Part shown: piece by piece, positions 2,494 to 10,348 of the stretch
Numbering within the stretch: position 1 is the stretch's first letter
Layout of the letters: each line of letters starts with the position of its first letter
Virus record (IMG/VR): IMGVR_UViG_2698536476_000007
DNA length: 26,878 nucleotides
From: a virus
Lineage: Duplodnaviria; Heunggongvirae; Uroviricota; Caudoviricetes
Strand: one strand, 5' to 3'
The notes under the pieces: model-generated
The model's input: only the letters and a program-made list of their open reading frames with translations
Told to the model about the DNA's origin: nothing
Databases searched by the model: none
Made by a program: the position numbers and the translations under genes

Positions 2494-2850
2494 ATGCGTG
2501 ATATGTATGAAGTAATGGATCGTTGGGGAGCTTGGGCTGCTTCAGACAATAGCGGAGTGGACTGGCAGCCGATAGCGGCTGGTTTCAAGGGACTTTTACC
2601 TCATGGCAAAAAGTCACGGATTCAGTGTGATGATGACGAAGGCATCATGATAGACAGTTGTGTGGCTCGGTTGAGAAGGTATAAACCAGAGGAATATGAG
2701 CTCATCATCGCCCACTTTGTTATCGGTATCTCATTACGCACTATTGCGAAGAAGAGAAAATGCTCTGATGGCACAATTAGGAAGGAACTGCAAACTGCAA
2801 TGGGGTTTGTTGACGGCTGTTTAGCAATGTTAGCTTATAGTATGGCATAA
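2494..2850 (+). CDS. Q: Late-gene antitermination protein Q (phage 82/21-type)
   Basis: 'VMDRWGAWAA...WQPIAAGFKGLLP...SRIQCDDDEG' matches the 82-type Q family (LERWGAWAA...IAAGFKGL...CCDDD). Sits immediately upstream of the lysis cassette. GGAG at 2483-2486 precedes ATG 2494. Confidence 0.75.
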   Translation: MRDMYEVMDRWGAWAASDNSGVDWQPIAAGFKGLLPHGKKSRIQCDDDEGIMIDSCVARLRRYKPEEYELIIAHFVIGISLRTIAKKRKCSDGTIRKELQTAMGFVDGCLAMLAYSMA

Positions 2851-4044
2851 AAAATAAAATAGATTTACTGCCGATTTTTCAAAAAAGACTGGGAACTGTT
2901 TATATCCAACGTAAATAAGGCCTCCATAAAACATGGCTGATGCGAGATATTTAACAGTTCTCATCCTTTTTTTAGCTTTATCAATCAAACCTGTAATGCT
3001 ACTCTTAATACTATCTGCATTATCTTTGATTTCTTTATTTTCTTCAAACTTTAAATACTTATCGAAAGCGGACTCCACTCGAGAACGTAAGTTGTCGAAT
3101 GTTTCATTGAATATCTCAATAGAAATGTAATTGACTTTTTTTATCATCCAAAGTCCTGCGATAATCAATATTGCTTCGGTTGTTTCATTAGCCTTCACTA
3201 AGCCACCAGCAGCTATTAATGCACCGGGAATAGTCAATGCTTTTGTCTGATTAGATGATATGAATTCGTTAATTTTACTCGTGAACTCAAGATTTTTCTC
3301 ATCGAGTTCGTTAAGAATTTTATTTACAGAAAACCTCTTTGTGTAAATCTCATATAGTTCATCATATTTTTTCCTGACGAGTTCAGTAGAGTTAAGCAAG
3401 TCAAAGAAATTGAACGTACCATTTGCTTTAAATACTTCGTTTATGGCTGAGCGTATAACGAGCTTGCGCTCGCTTTTGTGTAAATCATTGATTTTTATTG
3501 TGTCGAGAAGCTCCTTTATAATTTCATATTTAAGAGACGAGTTCGATAAGCGATTAATCTCGCTATATTGTAAAAAATGCGTGAGTTCGACTGTATAACT
3601 TTTGTCTTCATTGGTGAAAAATAAGACAGAGCAGTCACTGTTATGATGATCAGCAATTAATGAAAGGATATCTTTCCACATAAAGAAAATATGGATTTTT
3701 TCGATGCTTTCATTCTTAGAAGTAGGGAGTATTAACGGCGTTCCGATGATATAATTTTTCGGAAGAGCGTTTTGGGTGTTTACTCTAGACCAAAAAGACT
3801 CAACATTCTCATAAATTATAGCGTCATCCCAAGATGAAGCTTGGCGATCTAGCCAAATTTCATTATTTTCGATGCAGGTTGTTGCCTTTTTATAACCTAT
3901 AGATTGTAACAGTCTAATTATTTCAGAACTATTTACAATAACAATGCTTTCTTCAAGACTTATGACAGTGTAGTAGCCCTCAACTCTGCTTGAGGCTCCG
4001 TTAATAATCTGCGCTAATCTTGATAAGTCATCAGCAATTGTCAT
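2830..4044 (-). CDS. Hypothetical protein, 404 aa; soluble N-domain plus C-terminal hydrophobic helices; downstream gene of the AT-rich cargo operon (candidate effector)
   Basis: Uninterrupted 1.2 kb ORF in very AT-rich DNA, where long ORFs are unlikely by chance. Start ATG lies 2 nt after the upstream gene's TAA (translational coupling). Hydrophobic stretches LTIPGALIAAGGLV, AILIIAGLWMI and YLASAMFYGGLIYVGY near the C-terminus. No family recognised. Confidence 0.8.
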   Translation of the reverse strand: MTIADDLSRLAQIINGASSRVEGYYTVISLEESIVIVNSSEIIRLLQSIGYKKATTCIENNEIWLDRQASSWDDAIIYENVESFWSRVNTQNALPKNYIIGTPLILPTSKNESIEKIHIFFMWKDILSLIADHHNSDCSVLFFTNEDKSYTVELTHFLQYSEINRLSNSSLKYEIIKELLDTIKINDLHKSERKLVIRSAINEVFKANGTFNFFDLLNSTELVRKKYDELYEIYTKRFSVNKILNELDEKNLEFTSKINEFISSNQTKALTIPGALIAAGGLVKANETTEAILIIAGLWMIKKVNYISIEIFNETFDNLRSRVESAFDKYLKFEENKEIKDNADSIKSSITGLIDKAKKRMRTVKYLASAMFYGGLIYVGYKQFPVFFEKSAVNLFYFLCHTIS

Positions 4045-4046
4045 TA

Positions 4047-5222
4047 TTAGCTGTCTCTATATCTTTTGAGTTCATCATAATTTGCCTGACTCAATTTTAT
4101 CACAATTTCGCATTTGTTGTCAGTGAGAATTACAGGCTTATTTGACTTTTCGTCTCCAATAGCTCCACGCATTATTTTCAACTTAAAATTATTGTCGTTA
4201 TCTGCCACTTCAATTGTAAGCGCGCTTTCAGCTGCTTTAGGAGTTGGTTCAAATTGAGGGTCAATCTGGAAACCATTAAGATTAACAAAATCGACAAACG
4301 TTCCCTTACATTTGTGTGAATCAGTCAGGCATGAGTCAATTATTTTTGAAATATCCTCTATCTTAACGGACTTATTTCCGTGTTTATCTTTTGATTTTTT
4401 TTCCAGTAAGGATTTAACTTCATTGTCAATAGTATCACGCAGTACACGACCGAGTGAGTTTTTACTAGCAAAAATATCTATAGCACTGAATAATTGCTGA
4501 ATGCTTCTTTTATTGTCCGAATCATGTCGGCAACCTAATGAGTCTTTGAAAAAATCGCTTTTAGATTTACCTTGCAAGAAATGTACATATGAGTCACCCT
4601 TGTTTTCTGGATAACTGGCTTCGAATAAAGTTAAATCGAACATCGCAGCCTGCCGTAAGGCATCGGTATTAATTGGATTTAATCTTGTTGGGGTCAACTT
4701 ATCCGAATCAAAGTCATAGGCGCTTTGTTTATCAACCATTACGATTAGAAGTTTCCCCAAATCCTCTGGTTCGGTAGACTTATAGTGGATGAAAACAACG
4801 CTCCCCCCCTGAAGTTGGGCAACTCTCGATTCGTTATTAGCATTATGTTTAAGCTTCTCTATTATAGCTCTAGATAAATCAATGAATTCATTATTTTTAT
4901 TAATGTATTTTTTTAGGATCGTAGGAATGGATGAAGGGTTGTGATCTGAGTCTAGGAAGTTATGAAATTTGTTTTTTCGGCTAAATTTTTTCTCAATTCT
5001 GGTTATGAATTCAGATGTGACTTCATTTTTTAGATCCCAAACTTCACCTAATCGATAATCAAATGCTCTTGAATCATTTTTTTCAAGATTTGCTGTTACA
5101 GCACCAATAGGAAAGTACGATTGTTTGCCCAGCACTACAACATGAGGCGTGGCACCGCATTTATCGCAAGCTACAGTTGGGTCGTCAAGAACATTGCCAC
5201 ATTCTAAACAAGTTATATCCAT
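4047..5222 (-). CDS. Hypothetical protein, 391 aa; N-terminal CxxC-x10-CxxC zinc ribbon plus NdpA/YejK-like region; upstream gene of the cargo operon (candidate sensor/DNA binder)
   Basis: Long ORF in AT-rich DNA. N-terminus CLECGNVLDDPTVACDKCG. Central 'GGSVVFIHY...LLIVMV...NPINTDALRQAAMFDLTLFE...YVHFLQGKSKSDFF' parallels the NdpA motif series GGFVLFCHY...LLVAVL...DLTEWE...YLTFLKGRVGRKVADFF, as recalled from memory. Confidence 0.8.
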   Translation of the reverse strand: MDITCLECGNVLDDPTVACDKCGATPHVVVLGKQSYFPIGAVTANLEKNDSRAFDYRLGEVWDLKNEVTSEFITRIEKKFSRKNKFHNFLDSDHNPSSIPTILKKYINKNNEFIDLSRAIIEKLKHNANNESRVAQLQGGSVVFIHYKSTEPEDLGKLLIVMVDKQSAYDFDSDKLTPTRLNPINTDALRQAAMFDLTLFEASYPENKGDSYVHFLQGKSKSDFFKDSLGCRHDSDNKRSIQQLFSAIDIFASKNSLGRVLRDTIDNEVKSLLEKKSKDKHGNKSVKIEDISKIIDSCLTDSHKCKGTFVDFVNLNGFQIDPQFEPTPKAAESALTIEVADNDNNFKLKIMRGAIGDEKSNKPVILTDNKCEIVIKLSQANYDELKRYRDS

Positions 5223-5843: not shown

Positions 5844-6320
5844 ATGCAGGTACTAAATTCCCAGCGTAAAGCTTTCCTGGATATGGTGGCATGGTCAGAA
5901 GGAACGGATAACGGGCGACAACCGACACGTAACCACGGTTATGACGTTATTGTCGGTGGCGAACTCTTCACTGATTACTCCGATCACCCTCGCAAACTTG
6001 TCACGCTAAACCCGAAACTCAAATCAACAGCTGCAGGCCGTTATCAACTTCTTTCACGTTGGTGGGATGCTTACCGCAAGCAGCTTGGGCTGAAAGACTT
6101 CTCTCCCAGAAGCCAGGACTCAGTGGCATTACAGCAGATTAAAGAGCGTGGCGCTTTACCGATGATTGACCGCGGCGATATTCGTCAGGCAATCGACCGT
6201 TGCAGCAATATCTGGGCTTCACTGCCGGGCGCTGGTTATGGTCAGTTCGAGCATAAGGCTGACAGCCTGATTGCAAAATTCAAAGAAGCGGGCGGAACGG
6301 TCAGAGAGATTGAGGTATGA
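5844..6320 (+). CDS. R: Endolysin, lytic transglycosylase (lambda R)
   Basis: 158 aa, near-identical to lambda R across its length ([79 protein letters not shown]...). Confidence 0.95.
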
Positions 6321-6754
6321 GCAGAGTCACCGCGATTATCTCCGCTCTGGTTATCTGCATCATCGTCTGCCTGTCATGGGCTGTTAATCATTACCGTGAT
6401 AACGCCATGACCTACAAAGAGCAGCGCGATAAAGCCGCATCCATCATCGCTGATATGCAGAAGCGTCAACGTGATGTAGCAGAACTCGACGCCAGATACA
6501 CAAAGGAGCTTGCTGATGCTAACGCGACTATCGAAAGTCTCCGTGCTGATGTTTCTGCTGGTCGTAAGCGCCTGCAAGTCGCCGCCACCTGTGCAAAGTC
6601 AACGACCGGAGCCAGCAGCATGGGCGATGGAGAAAGCCCAAGACTTACAGCAGATGCTGAACTCAATTATTACCGTCTCAGAAGTGGAATCAACAGGATA
6701 ACCGCGCAGGTTAACTACCTGCAGGAATACATCAGGACGCAATGCCTGAAATGA
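6317..6754 (+). CDS. Rz: i-spanin Rz
   Basis: N-terminus [30 protein letters not shown] is essentially identical to lambda Rz; C-terminus 'QCLK'. Confidence 0.9.
6516..6701 (+). CDS. Rz1: o-spanin Rz1 (lipoprotein), embedded in the +1 frame of Rz
   Basis: AAGGAG RBS at 6503-6508 precedes ATG 6516. Signal peptide [20 protein letters not shown] with lipobox Cys, then a proline-rich stretch ([13 protein letters not shown]) as in lambda Rz1. Confidence 0.75.
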
Positions 6755-6789
6755 TCGGGCGATGAAAACCAAAAAAACAGGAGCAATAC

Positions 6790-7065
6790 ATGACTAAGCT
6801 TTATCACCGCATCTCAGCTTTTCTCTCTGGGTGCTGGGCGTTTATCACGTCTATTTCGTTCGTCATCTTTAGTTTCGGTAGCACAGCATGCTCGCTTAGT
6901 CGGGGTCTGTGGCGTGCTATTTCAGCACTAGCGCCGAAATTTTTACCTGAAAAGGTTGTTTGGCGAATTGTAGAGCGAATGTGTAGTGAGAGCGTTCGCG
7001 AGAAGATTAACGTATTTGGACGTCATCCTCGAAATACAGGCGCATTGTGCAGTTCGTTACTGTAG
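6790..7065 (+). CDS. Hypothetical small protein with hydrophobic N-terminal region (moron position downstream of Rz)
   Basis: CAGGAG RBS 8 nt upstream of the ATG; hydrophobic segment AFITSISFVIFSF; followed by a hairpin at 7074-7100. No family recognised. Confidence 0.4.
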   Translation: MTKLYHRISAFLSGCWAFITSISFVIFSFGSTACSLSRGLWRAISALAPKFLPEKVVWRIVERMCSESVREKINVFGRHPRNTGALCSSLL

Positions 7066-7073
7066 TCATTACA

Positions 7074-7100
7074 AAGCCCATCTTTGGGTTTGGTTTGTAA
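7074..7100 (+). terminator. Hairpin with trailing T-rich tract (possible weak terminator) downstream of the 6790-7065 ORF
   Basis: AAGCCCA-tctt-TGGGTTT stem (one G-T wobble) followed by GGTTTGTAATTT. Confidence 0.3.
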
Positions 7101-7183
7101 TTTCGCTGCTGCAATAATCACCAGAAATATGGCATTGTAATTGGTGGTCATATGTCATACCCATCAATTACAAAGGAGCAGAC

Positions 7184-7435
7184 ATGTCATCTACAAAATT
7201 AGTTAAAACTATCCTTTTCCATGGAGATAATAAATATGAAGTTTATGCAACCTCCGAGTACGCTGACGTAGATAGAATCATTCATTACAAGTTACGCTCA
7301 TGTAAAAACACAGATGGTTCAGATGGCAAGTCTGAATCTATATGGGTTGTATATAATCCTGCTGTTCAACTACCGGATGATCTGAACTACAAAAAAGTTA
7401 GCAACATAGCTCCTTATCTTGAAAAGTTACAATAA
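7184..7435 (+). CDS. Hypothetical 83-aa protein; AT-rich moron with its own RBS and terminator
   Basis: AGGAG RBS 6 nt upstream of the ATG; AT-rich codon usage unlike flanking phage genes; intrinsic terminator immediately downstream. No family recognised. Confidence 0.55.
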   Translation: MSSTKLVKTILFHGDNKYEVYATSEYADVDRIIHYKLRSCKNTDGSDGKSESIWVVYNPAVQLPDDLNYKKVSNIAPYLEKLQ

Positions 7436-7457
7436 ACTTCCTTTTCCACATGCTAAA

Positions 7458-7483
7458 AGCCTCGTATTCGCGGGGCTTTTTAT
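7458..7483 (+). terminator. Intrinsic terminator after the 7184-7435 moron
   Basis: GCCTCG-tattcg-CGGGGC stem (one G-T wobble) followed by TTTTTATT. Confidence 0.55.
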
Positions 7484-7493
7484 TGTCATTACA

Positions 7494-7519
7494 AAAGCCA
7501 CTCCCTACAGAGTGGCTTT
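7494..7519. terminator. Perfect 10-bp hairpin (AAGCCACTC-cctaca-GAGTGGCTT); possible opposite-strand or bidirectional terminator partner
   Basis: Perfect inverted repeat; on the - strand the stem is followed by TTTTGTAATG. Confidence 0.3.
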
Positions 7520-7647
7520 GATAATGGTTTATACCCTACACGGGATAACTTAACTGATATCCCTTTTAACGGATAAACGGAGCCAACAATGGCAGAGAAT
7601 GTCGGCATTATGGCAGTTAAATTTGGATAAATCGGAGATTAGTACAT

Positions 7648-7998
7648 ATGCCGCCACGAATCCCGAAAGCCTGCCGTGCTCGAGGTTGCCGTAATACCAC
7701 CACTGACCCGTCAGGCTATTGCGAAAGCCACAAAAGCGAAGGCTGGAAGCAATACAAACCTGGACAATCCCGTCATCAGCGCGGCTACGGTTCGAAGTGG
7801 GACAGTATCCGCGCGCGTGTCCTGAAGCGTGACAAAGGCCTGTGTCAGTTATGTCTGCGTTCTGGTGTGGTGCGTGAGGCGAAAACTGTTGACCACATCA
7901 TCCCTAAAGCGCATGGCGGCACTGATGCTGACAGTAATCTGCAGAGTCTGTGCTGGCCGTGTCATAAGGCGAAGACGGCCCGTGAACGGTTAAAGTGA
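7648..7998 (+). CDS. HNH endonuclease (packaging-associated, upstream of terminase)
   Basis: Cys pairs (CRARGC...C) plus 'VDHIIPKAHGGTDADSNLQSLCWPCHKAK' is the HNH motif; classic HNH-cos-TerS-TerL arrangement of HK97-like phages. Confidence 0.85.
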   Translation: MPPRIPKACRARGCRNTTTDPSGYCESHKSEGWKQYKPGQSRHQRGYGSKWDSIRARVLKRDKGLCQLCLRSGVVREAKTVDHIIPKAHGGTDADSNLQSLCWPCHKAKTARERLK

Positions 7999-8018
7999 TA
8001 ATAATTCTCAACTGTCTG

Positions 8019-8123: not shown

Positions 8124-8618
8124 ATGGCTGGAACGGCGGGGCGTTCCGGGCGTCGCCCCAAGCCAACGGCGCGCAAGGCGCTGGCCGGAAACCCCGGCAA
8201 GCGAGCCCTGAATAAAGATGAACCTGTTTTTACGCCCATCAAAGGTGTTGAGCCACCGGAGTGGTTCGCAGAAGAAAATCTCCCTCTCGCCACGATCATG
8301 TGGCAACTGACAACCAAAGAACTCTGCGGTCAGGGCCTGTTGTGCGTGACTGACCTCGCGGTGCTTGAGCGGTGGTGCGTGGCCTATGAGTTCTGGCGAC
8401 GTGCCGTGAAAAATATTGCCATACAGGGCAACACCATCACCGGTGCAATGGGCGGCAGGGTCAAAAATCCGGAGCTGACCGCCAAAAAAGAACAGGAGTC
8501 CGAGATGAGCAGCACGGGGGCAATGCTCGGACTCGACCCCAGCAGCCGCCAGCGTCTGATTGGCCTGGCGGGGCAGAAGAAAGCCACTAACCCGTTTCTG
8601 AAAATCATCGAGTCATGA
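8124..8618 (+). CDS. Terminase small subunit (P27 family-like)
   Basis: AGGAG RBS at 8111-8115 precedes ATG 8124; basic N-terminus and position immediately upstream of, and overlapping, the large terminase subunit. Confidence 0.8.
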
Positions 8619-10348
8619 GCCGGAAATCTTACCCCAACGTAAATGCTGCCAATCAGTATGCCCGTGATGTTGTGCGCGGAAAGATTGTGGCCTGCCAGTT
8701 TGTGATTCAGGCCTGCCAGCGCCATCTTGATGACCTGATGGCGGAAAAAAGTAAGTCGTTTCGTTACCGCTTCGACAAGGACCTGGCTGAACGGGCCGCC
8801 AAATTTATTCAGCTGTTGCCGCACACCAAGGGTGAGTGGGCATTCAAGAGGATGCCCATCACGCTGGAGCCGTGGCAGCTATTTGTGGTCTGCTGTGCGT
8901 TTGGCTGGGTCAATAAAGGGTCCCGGCTGCGCCGCTTCCGGGAGGTGTATACCGAAATCCCCCGTAAGAACGGCAAATCGGCAATCTCTGCCGGTGTTGC
9001 CCTGTATTGTTTTGCCTGTGATAACGAGTTTGGCGCGGAAGTGTATTCCGGTGCCACGACAGAGAAACAGGCGTGGGAAGTCTTTCGCCCGGCGCGACTG
9101 ATGTGTAAACGCACACCCATGCTGACGGAAGCGTTCGGGATTGAGGTTAACGCCTCAAACATTAATCGTCCGGAGGATGGCGCGCGGTTTGAACCGCTGA
9201 TCGGTAACCCCGGTGATGGTTCATCACCCCACTGTGCGGTGGTGGATGAATATCACGAGCACGCCACCGATGCGCTTTACACCACGATGCTTACCGGGAT
9301 GGGGGCGCGACGTCAGCCACTGATGTGGGCCATTACTACTGCCGGGTACAACATTGAGGGGCCGTGCTACGACAAGCGACGGGAAGTTATCGAGATGCTC
9401 AACGGGTCGGTACCCAACGATGAACTGTTCGGGATCATCTATACCGTTGACGAAGGCGATGACTGGACCGACCCGCAGGTGCTGGAAAAAGCTAACCCGA
9501 ATATTGGCGTGTCGGTTTATCGCGAATTTTTGTTAAGTCAGCAGCAGCGTGCGAAAAATAACGCCCGTCTGGCAAACGTCTTTAAAACAAAACACCTCAA
9601 TATCTGGGTGTCGGCGCGTTCGGCGTATTTCAACCTGGTGAGCTGGCAGAGCTGCGAGGATAAATCACTGACCCTTGAGCAGTTCGAGGGGCAGCCGTGC
9701 ATTCTGGCCTTTGACCTGGCGCGTAAGCTGGATATGAACAGCATGGCGCGACTTTATACCCGCGAGATTGACGGTAAAACGCATTACTACAGTGTGGCTC
9801 CGCGCTTCTGGGTACCGTATGACACGGTGTACAGCGTCGAGAAAAATGAAGATCGCCGGACAGCCGAACGCTTTCAGAAATGGGTGGAAATGGGCGTTCT
9901 GACCGTTACCGATGGTGCGGAGGTGGATTATCGCTACATCCTCGAGGAGGCCAAAGCGGCGAACAAAATCAGCCCGGTCAGTGAGTCACCCATCGACCCC
10001 TTCGGGGCGACCGGGTTGTCACATGACCTTGCTGATGAAGACCTGAATCCCGTCACTATCATTCAGAACTACACCAACATGTCCGACCCGATGAAAGAGC
10101 TGGAAGCGGCAATTGAATCGGGGCGCTTTCATCATGATGGCAATCCCATCATGACCTGGTGTATCGGCAATGTGGTCGGCAAAACCATTCCGGGTAACGA
10201 TGATGTGGTGAAACCCGTCAAAGAGCAGGCGGAAAACAAAATTGACGGTGCAGTTGCGCTGATTATGGCGGTTGGCAGAGCCATGCTGTACGAGAAAGAA
10301 GACACGCTGTCTGACCACATTGAGTCCTATGGGATCCGCTCGCTTTAA
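8615..10348 (+). CDS. Terminase large subunit
   Basis: 577 aa; size and position (ATGA overlap with the small subunit, followed by portal), with acidic/ATPase-like motifs such as '[11 protein letters not shown]'. Confidence 0.9.

Follow-up and report, generated by a model that had tools for sequence, protein, structure and literature searches.

Why does a lambdoid prophage carry a small AT-rich gene in the middle of its late region, and how is the gene kept from disturbing the late programme of the phage itself? The question is raised by an open reading frame (ORF) of 83 codons at positions 7184-7435 of IMG/VR record IMGVR_UViG_2698536476_000007, a 26,878-nt stretch of caudoviral DNA referred to hereafter as the window. 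Temperate phages carry fitness and defence genes mainly in the form of the accessory genes known as morons, and how a moron is kept from disturbing late development is rarely addressed. Our comparative analysis predicts that the mRNA leader of the 83-residue gene forms a conserved long hairpin pairing the start codon and, in most relatives, the Shine-Dalgarno (SD) sequence, which suggests that only one kind of transcript is translated. Judged from its distribution and flanking sequences, the gene is a mobile accessory ('moron') cassette that moves between different lambdoid backbones. The start-codon-covering conserved leader is a new finding, and it is the most interesting and most testable element of the locus.

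The window comes from an E. coli prophage whose lysis genes are of the lambda type, whose packaging and head genes are of the HK97 type and whose tail is sheathed. Positions 7100-7500 are identical (100%) in several O103:H2 Shiga toxin-producing E. coli (STEC) genomes and 99.8% identical in E. coli 042. Translation of the ORF returned the 83-residue protein quoted in an earlier reading of the DNA, the first-pass annotation; the Prokaryotic Genome Annotation Pipeline (PGAP) calls it WP_000099430.1, 'hypothetical protein'. That annotation had described an AT-rich gene with a strong AGGAG ribosome-binding site (RBS), unlike its neighbours in composition and lying between the lysis and packaging modules, and each of these points held. 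The GC content of the ORF is 0.34 (0.27 at third codon positions, GC3) compared to 0.52 for the whole window and 0.47-0.59 for neighbouring genes (0.51-0.59 for holin, lysozyme, Rz, HNH, TerS and TerL). PGAP annotation of an identical locus, together with Pfam, places the holin (5514), lysozyme (5844) and Rz (6317-6754) genes on one side and the HNH (7648-7998), TerS and TerL (8615-10348) genes on the other. Homologous genes have a GC content of 0.34-0.44 versus 0.41-0.55 for their own loci; in the two Hafnia copies (L036 and L037) the gene, at about 0.41, shows no deviation from its locus.

Nucleotide conservation extends over about 65 nt upstream of the ATG, even where the encoded proteins are only 40-47% identical. 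In the window this region folds into a hairpin whose lower helix, P1, contains the start codon (Table 1), and the same architecture was predicted in 19 of the 21 related leaders folded (the tally being 13 of 14, all five, and both of two in three folding sets). In most relatives the P2 helix pairs the SD sequence itself. Compensatory changes were found in P2 (UUUCCUU/AAGGAAA, UCUCCUU/AAGGAGA and AUUUCUCU/GGAGAAAU) and in the apical hairpin, P3 (GGGUAU/AUACCC, GGGCAC/GUGCC and GGCGCA/UGCGCC). Three leaders that could not be aligned with the rest also pair the AUG, via UUGUCAU/AUGACAA in L034, GCCAUAUAU/AUAUAUGGC in L025 (DNA: GCCATATAT/ATATATGGC) and CCAUGAUU/AAUCAUGG in L038 (DNA: CCATGATT/AATCATGG). 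Since the G.U pairs work only on the plus strand, the leader structure is a feature of the RNA.

Measured against controls, the named structure stood out. On a plain MAFFT alignment 84% of the cells pair, compared to 38-51% with slid partners; in a covariance-model alignment, comprising 14 sequences, the figures are 85% and, for the slid controls overall, 38-52%. In the latter alignment both-sided changes occur in 8 of 20 pairs, a number reached by 8 of 500 shuffles, and 18 cells show double changes, a number reached by none of the 500. The covariation score was 0.302, compared to 0.246 for shuffled (1/500) and 0.09-0.14 for slid alignments. The z-score of the minimum free energy (MFE), computed from -62 to +12, averaged -3.06 in 14 family leaders versus +0.18 at the starts of 33 other genes in the window (Mann-Whitney p = 1.3e-7), and the AUG was fully paired to an upstream partner in 12 of the 14 family leaders versus 5 of the 33 controls. 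An Rfam scan over 6500-8000 gave best matches far below the gathering scores. A leader peptide starting at the upstream ATGGCA was considered and rejected, since in the window and in L024 it would be just 2-3 codons long and in the L027 group an ATG is missing at this place.

How two kinds of transcript might arise is suggested by an extended -10-like motif within the 5' arm of the hairpin, of a type missed by a scan for two hexamers. The pattern TGnCAYnnT is present at the aligned position in all 14 leaders (alignment A7), its first six bases varying only at 'n', and the T of the TG is kept in five sequences whose pairing partner has changed. Transcription would be predicted to start near 7145, 7 nt past the motif, at a conserved G located at the base of P3. 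Removal of the 5' arm in silico opened the start region in L022, L024, L036 and L039, where accessibility rose from 0.12-0.25 to 0.52-0.66. A sigma-54 promoter (TGGCAC-N5-TTGC) was rejected at this position because the site lacks the GC of the -12 element and the L027 group does not keep the GG.

We propose, tentatively, a scheme of transcript-selective expression that may well need revision. Long Q-antiterminated late transcripts from the lysis genes would carry both arms of the hairpin, and with both arms on the same read-through RNA the gene would be translated poorly during the phage's own lytic growth. A short mRNA beginning at the base of the apical hairpin would be made from a weak extended -10-type promoter in the 5' arm. 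Such an mRNA would lack the anti-AUG/anti-SD arm, would have a stabilising stem-loop at its very 5' end, would be translatable in lysogens and would end at the junction terminator described below. As the gene is also kept in loci that have no late promoter, a local promoter would be needed if it is expressed there.

Several results weigh against this scheme. A two-hexamer sigma-70 scan found no plus-strand promoter upstream of the gene in the window, nor any in two remnant loci, so the 'autonomous transcription unit' of the first-pass annotation is not established. The -10-like hexamer is weak (CATTGT) and its conservation is also explained by pairing with the AUG; in the L027 group, in silico removal of the 5' arm does not open the start region. 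In the window itself the AGGAG sits unpaired in an internal loop between P2 and P1, and the accessibility of the start region (0.48, folded from -70 to +30) equals the average of other genes. RNAalifold returned no consensus structure from the plain MAFFT alignment because the P2 register differs between lineages; the leader was then assessed by the named structure, slid controls and the covariance-model alignment. The family sequences are related, so the shuffle statistics given above overstate significance. Finally, the terminator is not specific to the gene, being present in Ayreon and many other phages that have no ORF at this site.

At the T4 genes e (lysozyme), soc and I-TevI a similar arrangement is said to operate: read-through transcripts are reportedly silent in translation and a proximal promoter lies inside the hairpin, as McPheeters and colleagues in 1986, Macdonald and colleagues in 1984 and Gott and colleagues in 1988 are said to have described. 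As in those genes, a predicted hairpin with upstream sequence sequesters the start region here (the AUG is paired in 12 of 14 leaders), and the 5' arm holds a promoter-like element, which would leave a shorter transcript open. Unlike the T4 case, the proposed timing is reversed, with the long transcript made late and the short one in lysogens or constitutively. The candidate element is a weak sigma-70 extended -10-like motif rather than a T4 late promoter.

Of 5,426 complete E. coli genomes 17 carry the gene, as do 22 IMG/VR contigs, and a tblastn search of 50,697 deposited phage genomes found it in none. Carriers include the pathogenic lineages O103:H2 STEC and enteroaggregative E. coli (EAEC) 042, and also animal, environmental and commensal isolates as well as Hafnia and Kosakonia. 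In phage-like loci with informative flanks it is always 3' of the holin/endolysin/Rz genes, 5' of the packaging genes and on the late strand. The backbones are of several types (Table 1), and they have no neighbouring gene in common. In one relative (L025, IMGVR_UViG_2617270964_000016; gene at 6001-6249) the lysozyme, HNH, TerS and TerL are 90-97% identical to those of the window (95-97% for the last three), the allele of the 83-residue gene shares only 45% identity and has an unrelated leader sequence. Near-identical backbones with alleles this different show that divergent alleles have been swapped within one backbone.

The gene also persists outside recognizable phages. In Hafnia alvei (L036/L037, gene at 6001) it adjoins a truncated integrase, a TIR-domain protein with YuaX, an AAA_31 protein and host genes; in Kosakonia sp. 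(L038, gene at 6001) its neighbours are an integrase fragment, a glycosyltransferase and a SieA-family protein. Both islands are short, with no phage structural genes, no Q and no late promoter; the gene is intact and the leader is kept.

Empty sites define the cassette. HK140 has the same 91-residue ORF (orf91) after Rz and the same downstream flank, with other DNA between them and no ORF. Ayreon has the boundary motif GTCATTACAAA, 11 nt, then the same terminator and downstream hairpin, again with no ORF; the hairpin at this junction was annotated as a terminator by the authors of that genome. From these shared flanks the cassette lies between two copies of a junction hairpin, the 5' and 3' boundary hairpins of Table 1. 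The 5' copy, detected as inverted repeat I12 and direct repeat D3, is a degenerate version of the CATTACAAAGCC...GGCTTGATAATG element present at this junction in other lambdoid phages, and the element was seen also in HK140 (L001), L007, L023, L034, L036 and L041. The 3' copy is kept in many lambdoid phages. In the 26.9-kb window CATTACAA occurs three times only, always within 7067-7494. Part of the 7050-7650 interval is matched by 103 phage records, and the matches listed fall almost all within 7458-7598.

One of the three CATTACAA copies is inside the ORF, at the conserved IHYK codons. The junction hairpins that bracket the cassette have the form (C)CATTACAA, a variable inner stem and TTGATAATGG; the inner stems vary between phages yet stay complementary, and the hairpin may be a recombination linker or an RNA element. 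In HK140 (L001) a different insert of about 220 bp (2541-2760) fills the same slot between the two boundary hairpins. By eye, its minus strand has an apparent GGAGG followed by a very short hydrophobic ORF, and the insert might be another kind of cassette encoding, for example, a small toxin-like peptide.

A clean terminator directly downstream of the gene had been placed at 7458-7483, which was essentially right. It has 11 pairs (5 G-C) and a loop of 4 followed by TTTTTATT, and its MFE is -14.7 kcal/mol. In most homologues a hairpin and T-run lie 10-35 nt past the stop codon, with several unrelated stem sequences; in L038 and L039 the hairpin after the stop has no clear T-run. Since the same terminator is found at empty sites, it belongs to the junction as much as to the gene. 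The phrase 'own RBS and terminator' thus stands for the RBS and for the presence of a terminator; it does not stand for a terminator that is the gene's own.

The term moron was defined by Juhala et al. 2000 and Hendrix et al. 2000, and we used the wording given in PMC2629481. The gene is extra DNA, absent between the same flanks in HK140 and Ayreon and rare among E. coli genomes. Its composition deviates from that of its neighbours, and a factor-independent terminator follows it, though the same terminator is also at empty sites. As to a promoter of its own, only the TGnCAYnnT motif was seen, and the conservation of that motif can also be explained by start-codon pairing. The label given in the first-pass annotation is therefore largely justified by the extra DNA, foreign composition and mobility, with the promoter unproven and the terminator shared.

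The lambdoid morons HK97 gp15 and lambda bor and lom are likewise extra DNA of deviating composition within the late operon, followed by a terminator, and like them the 83-residue gene has no visible role in morphogenesis or lysis. It differs from them in having no demonstrable promoter, in a terminator common to empty sites, in a conserved start-codon-occluding leader and in encoding a protein of an uncharacterised family. To our knowledge, no start-codon-occluding leader has been described for any moron; if the present reading is true, a leader-silenced design would be new among lambdoid morons.

What kind of protein is being controlled in this way? A single-sequence search of 5.8 billion proteins recovered 5 clusters, and a profile search of 1.84 billion representatives recovered nine proteins at E <= 0.001, of which seven are credible members. 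The other two, long profile matches (P0011 and P0013), were rejected as tandem-repeat translations. A second profile search extended the family to about 29 clusters of 53-91 residues, and the named sources, where an organism is given, are all Enterobacterales (E. coli/Shigella, Salmonella, Hafnia, Kosakonia and Huaxiibacter). In a 27-sequence alignment L6, T9, K17, E19, I33, Y35 and N74 are invariant and Y21, R31 and W54 nearly so. Family conservation reaches down to 35-40% identity, and pairwise ratios of non-synonymous to synonymous substitution (dN/dS) are 0.04-0.24 in pairs with informative dS. Conservation and purifying selection make the ORF more than a chance reading frame, and they show that 7184-7435 is a real gene. 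The first-pass annotation had named lack of conservation in related prophages as grounds for doubting the ORF; the frame proved to be conserved throughout the family.

Selection is uneven along the protein. In the closest pairs the first 54 codons are nearly unchanged and the dN/dS of the C-terminal third is about 1; residues 55-83 hold 10 non-synonymous versus 3 synonymous changes in the pair of the window and L007, and 7 versus 0 in that of L023 and L003. The AlphaFold2 model, made with a deep alignment, is confident (predicted local distance difference test, pLDDT, 89.6; predicted template modelling score, pTM, 0.77), with predicted strands at 5-12, 16-22, 28-40 and 51-58 and a helix at 72-82. 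Conservation is strong in the N-terminal sheet; the C-terminal third diverges quickly. The protein is hydrophilic (grand average of hydropathy, GRAVY, -0.55; isoelectric point 6.7), with no membrane segment or signal peptide.

That the protein 'matches nothing recognised' was confirmed by the homology and structure searches that the first-pass annotation had proposed: these found homologues and no known fold or family. Searches of Pfam, NCBIfam and PADLOC with the protein gave no match and PHROGs gave only phrog_16949, a family of unknown function. A sequence-profile search of the PDB with the family returned nothing, and Foldseek comparison of the model with BFVD gave no fold match (best E-value 0.2). 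In the literature neither WP_000099430 nor phrog_16949 was mentioned. The family is small, new and restricted to Enterobacterales prophages, with a modelled fold that has no known match.

The explanation that in our view best accounts for the locus, held tentatively, is that of a moron cassette whose leader-selective translation supplies a lysogen-protective binding factor. The protein would act in the lysogen as a small binding protein protecting the cell or the prophage, through superinfection exclusion or anti-phage activity. The variable C-terminal third would set the specificity of binding, and low translation on late transcripts would avoid interference with the phage's own development. 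A conflict protein acting on the lysogen side is suggested by the small, stand-alone, soluble nature of the protein, by the conserved polar face of the beta-sheet combined with a fast-evolving C-terminal third, and by the swapping of alleles within near-identical backbones. It is also suggested by retention of the gene in remnants beside SieA, a TIR-domain protein and a glycosyltransferase, by a leader that would limit synthesis in the late phase and by a validated defence pair, DS-1, at another moron site of the same prophage. The first-pass annotation had suggested exclusion, anti-defence or host modulation for such a gene; the SieA or TIR-domain neighbours in the remnants lean towards a lysogen-side protective role over an anti-defence role. 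Stated in full, with a leader that silences late transcripts and a short lysogen-translated mRNA encoding a new-fold, single-protein exclusion or anti-phage factor whose C-terminus sets the target, the proposal is unlikely to be right in every part. Speaking against a defence role, the PADLOC-DB and NCBIfam defence models gave no match to the protein at E <= 1, and WP_000099430.1 is absent from those DefensePredictor supplements that were examined.

DS-1 is a two-gene system with a validated defence phenotype (DefensePredictor, PMC13092281). In the window an AT-rich pair encoding 404 and 391 residues (2830-5222, minus strand; GC about 0.32-0.38) lies between Q (2479-2850) and the holin gene. 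The pair matches NCBIfam DS1_2 and DS1_1 at 2.7e-112 and 2.1e-135, and the accessions at an identical locus (WP_000150292.1 and WP_000355468.1) are the DS-1 pair listed in PMC13092281. PADLOC v2.0 (2023) did not recognise it. Like the 83-residue gene, DS-1 is an AT-rich moron at a late-region junction; it differs in having two genes on the opposite strand, a validated phenotype and proteins unrelated to the 83-residue protein.

The defences Tab (PMC10884400) and Tha (PMC11087260) are carried by prophages within or beside late operons and have to spare the phage that encodes them. To that extent they resemble the present gene, being single small genes near late or structural modules that face a self-interference problem on induction. 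They show no sequence or fold similarity to the 83-residue protein, for which a defence role is only proposed, and the self-sparing proposed here would be translational, via the leader, rather than by an inhibitor protein.

The main rival is that the gene encodes a late accessory protein (anti-defence, host take-over, or a modulator of lysis or packaging) expressed only from the Q-antiterminated transcript, the leader either setting a low rate of translation or serving as an RNase III site that separates or activates the message. We regard this as doubtful, though it is a serious possibility. It would account for the constant co-orientation of the gene with the late operon directly between Rz and the packaging genes and for the lack of a consensus promoter in the scans, and Q-modified polymerase would read through the terminator. 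Stacked, P1 and P2 (with P3) reach about 19-22 bp interrupted by internal loops, and phage RNase III substrates are of this size; a fast-evolving C-terminus also fits an anti-defence arms race. The Hafnia and Kosakonia islands argue otherwise, as gene and leader are intact there with no Q, late promoter or structural genes. The gene is also dispensable, judging from the genome counts given above, and anti-defence genes are mostly early genes.

A factor of lysogenic conversion, perhaps a small regulator-binding protein that alters host physiology or virulence and has no role in conflict between phages, seems improbable. Morons such as lambda bor and lom act on host fitness, and the present gene is found in O103:H2 STEC and EAEC 042 and is retained in chromosomal remnants, as such a factor might be. 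However, its carriers also include animal, environmental and commensal isolates, Hafnia and Kosakonia; its neighbours in the remnants are phage-conflict genes; and 45% identical alleles in near-identical backbones are a pattern typical of conflict genes.

That the leader is an RNA thermometer, melting at host body temperature to free the start region, is very unlikely. ROSE and fourU elements are imperfect hairpins over the SD and AUG with G.U pairs and internal loops, a description that also fits this leader. The idea was rejected because the predicted MFE of the leaders is still -15 to -24 kcal/mol at 42 C and -12 to -20 kcal/mol at 50 C, and known RNA thermometers are far less stable than this.

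Least probable among the functional readings, and by a wide measure improbable, is the toxin of a type I toxin-antitoxin-like module. The mRNAs of such modules also have SD-sequestering leaders, as the structured leader here occludes the start region, and antisense promoter-like matches lie inside the ORF (7306-7277, minus strand, in the window, and 6077-6050, minus strand, in L036; 9/12 and 10/12). These matches are at non-homologous positions and within the number expected by chance in AT-rich DNA, so there is no conserved antisense promoter; the leader has no Rfam match; and a hydrophilic protein of 83 residues with a beta-sheet model and no membrane segment is not of the expected type. The last reading, a spurious ORF in non-coding AT-rich filler, has in its favour the lack of a known domain and has already been refuted by the profile clusters, the alignment with its invariant residues, a dN/dS well below 1, the confident AlphaFold2 model and the existence of a PHROG family, which leave it practically no chance of being right.

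If transcript-selective translation is true, it would be a simple, testable answer to the self-interference problem, and the leader could serve as a signature by which to find cargo within late operons that is expressed in lysogens. As a compact domain with a confident model, a conserved face and a variable tail, the protein is a tractable candidate for a new small protein of phage conflict. Should none of this prove true, the gene is one more hypothetical prophage gene.

Table 1. Features of the 83-residue gene, its leader and its borders in the window, and the backbones in which the gene is found
Feature	Position or locus	Strand	Details
Coding sequence, 83 aa	7184..7435	+	WP_000099430.1, PHROG 16949; predicted soluble, four beta-strands and C-terminal helix
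Shine-Dalgarno AGGAG	7174..7178	+	read from the sequence; 5 nt 5' of ATG
Leader hairpin (predicted)	7129..7190	+	MFE -17.5 kcal/mol, z = -2.3
P1	7129-7135 with 7184-7190	+	AUGGCAU with AUGUCAU (start codon plus 4 nt)
P2	7136-7147 with 7161-7172	+	
Apical loop	7148-7160	+	
Hypothetical extended -10-like motif	7130..7138	+	TGGCATTGT; TGn + CATTGT, A at -11, T at -7
5' boundary hairpin	7066..7101	+	outer arms ATTACAAA / TTTGTAAT, inner arms GCCCA / TGGGT
Intrinsic terminator	7455..7484	+	stem 7455-7480, T-run to 7484; also in phages without the ORF
3' boundary hairpin	7485..7527	+	CATTACAAAAGCCACTC / GAGTGGCTTTGATAATG; 17-nt arms, 88% complementary; inverted repeat I1
Backbone: lambda-type holin and HK97-type terminase	window, L025-L033		
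Backbone: Stx-phage-like	L007-L011		NanS-p, Bro-N, KilA-N
Backbone: P22-like	L003		M15 endolysin, Terminase_6C
Backbone: lambda GpA-type terminase	L039		
Backbone: three different Salmonella arrangements	L043-L045		identical protein

Three minor observations concern the surroundings of the gene. The ORF directly after Rz (orf91; 6790-7065, plus strand) matches phrog_34701 at 7.6e-54 and is annotated in HK140 as HK140_069; it has no PGAP call in the E. coli genomes. A hydrophobic stretch of about 24 residues lies near its N-terminus (AFLSGCWAFITSISFVIFSFGSTA). Downstream of the cassette, a 13-codon ORF (7589-7630, plus strand; ATGGCAGAG...TAA) shares its RBS and first three codons with HK140_070, which corresponds to the Sf6 gene 66/67 (DUF2560) region; the short ORF appears to be a truncated 5' end of an HK140_070-like gene, probably left where the HNH/terminase module was joined. 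In E. coli 2015C-3163 (L002) an IS3-family insertion sequence (IS) element at 2907-4120 interrupts the DUF968 gene of an otherwise identical prophage. The window has an intact 331-residue ORF at 1481-2476 and thus comes from a copy that does not carry this IS insertion.

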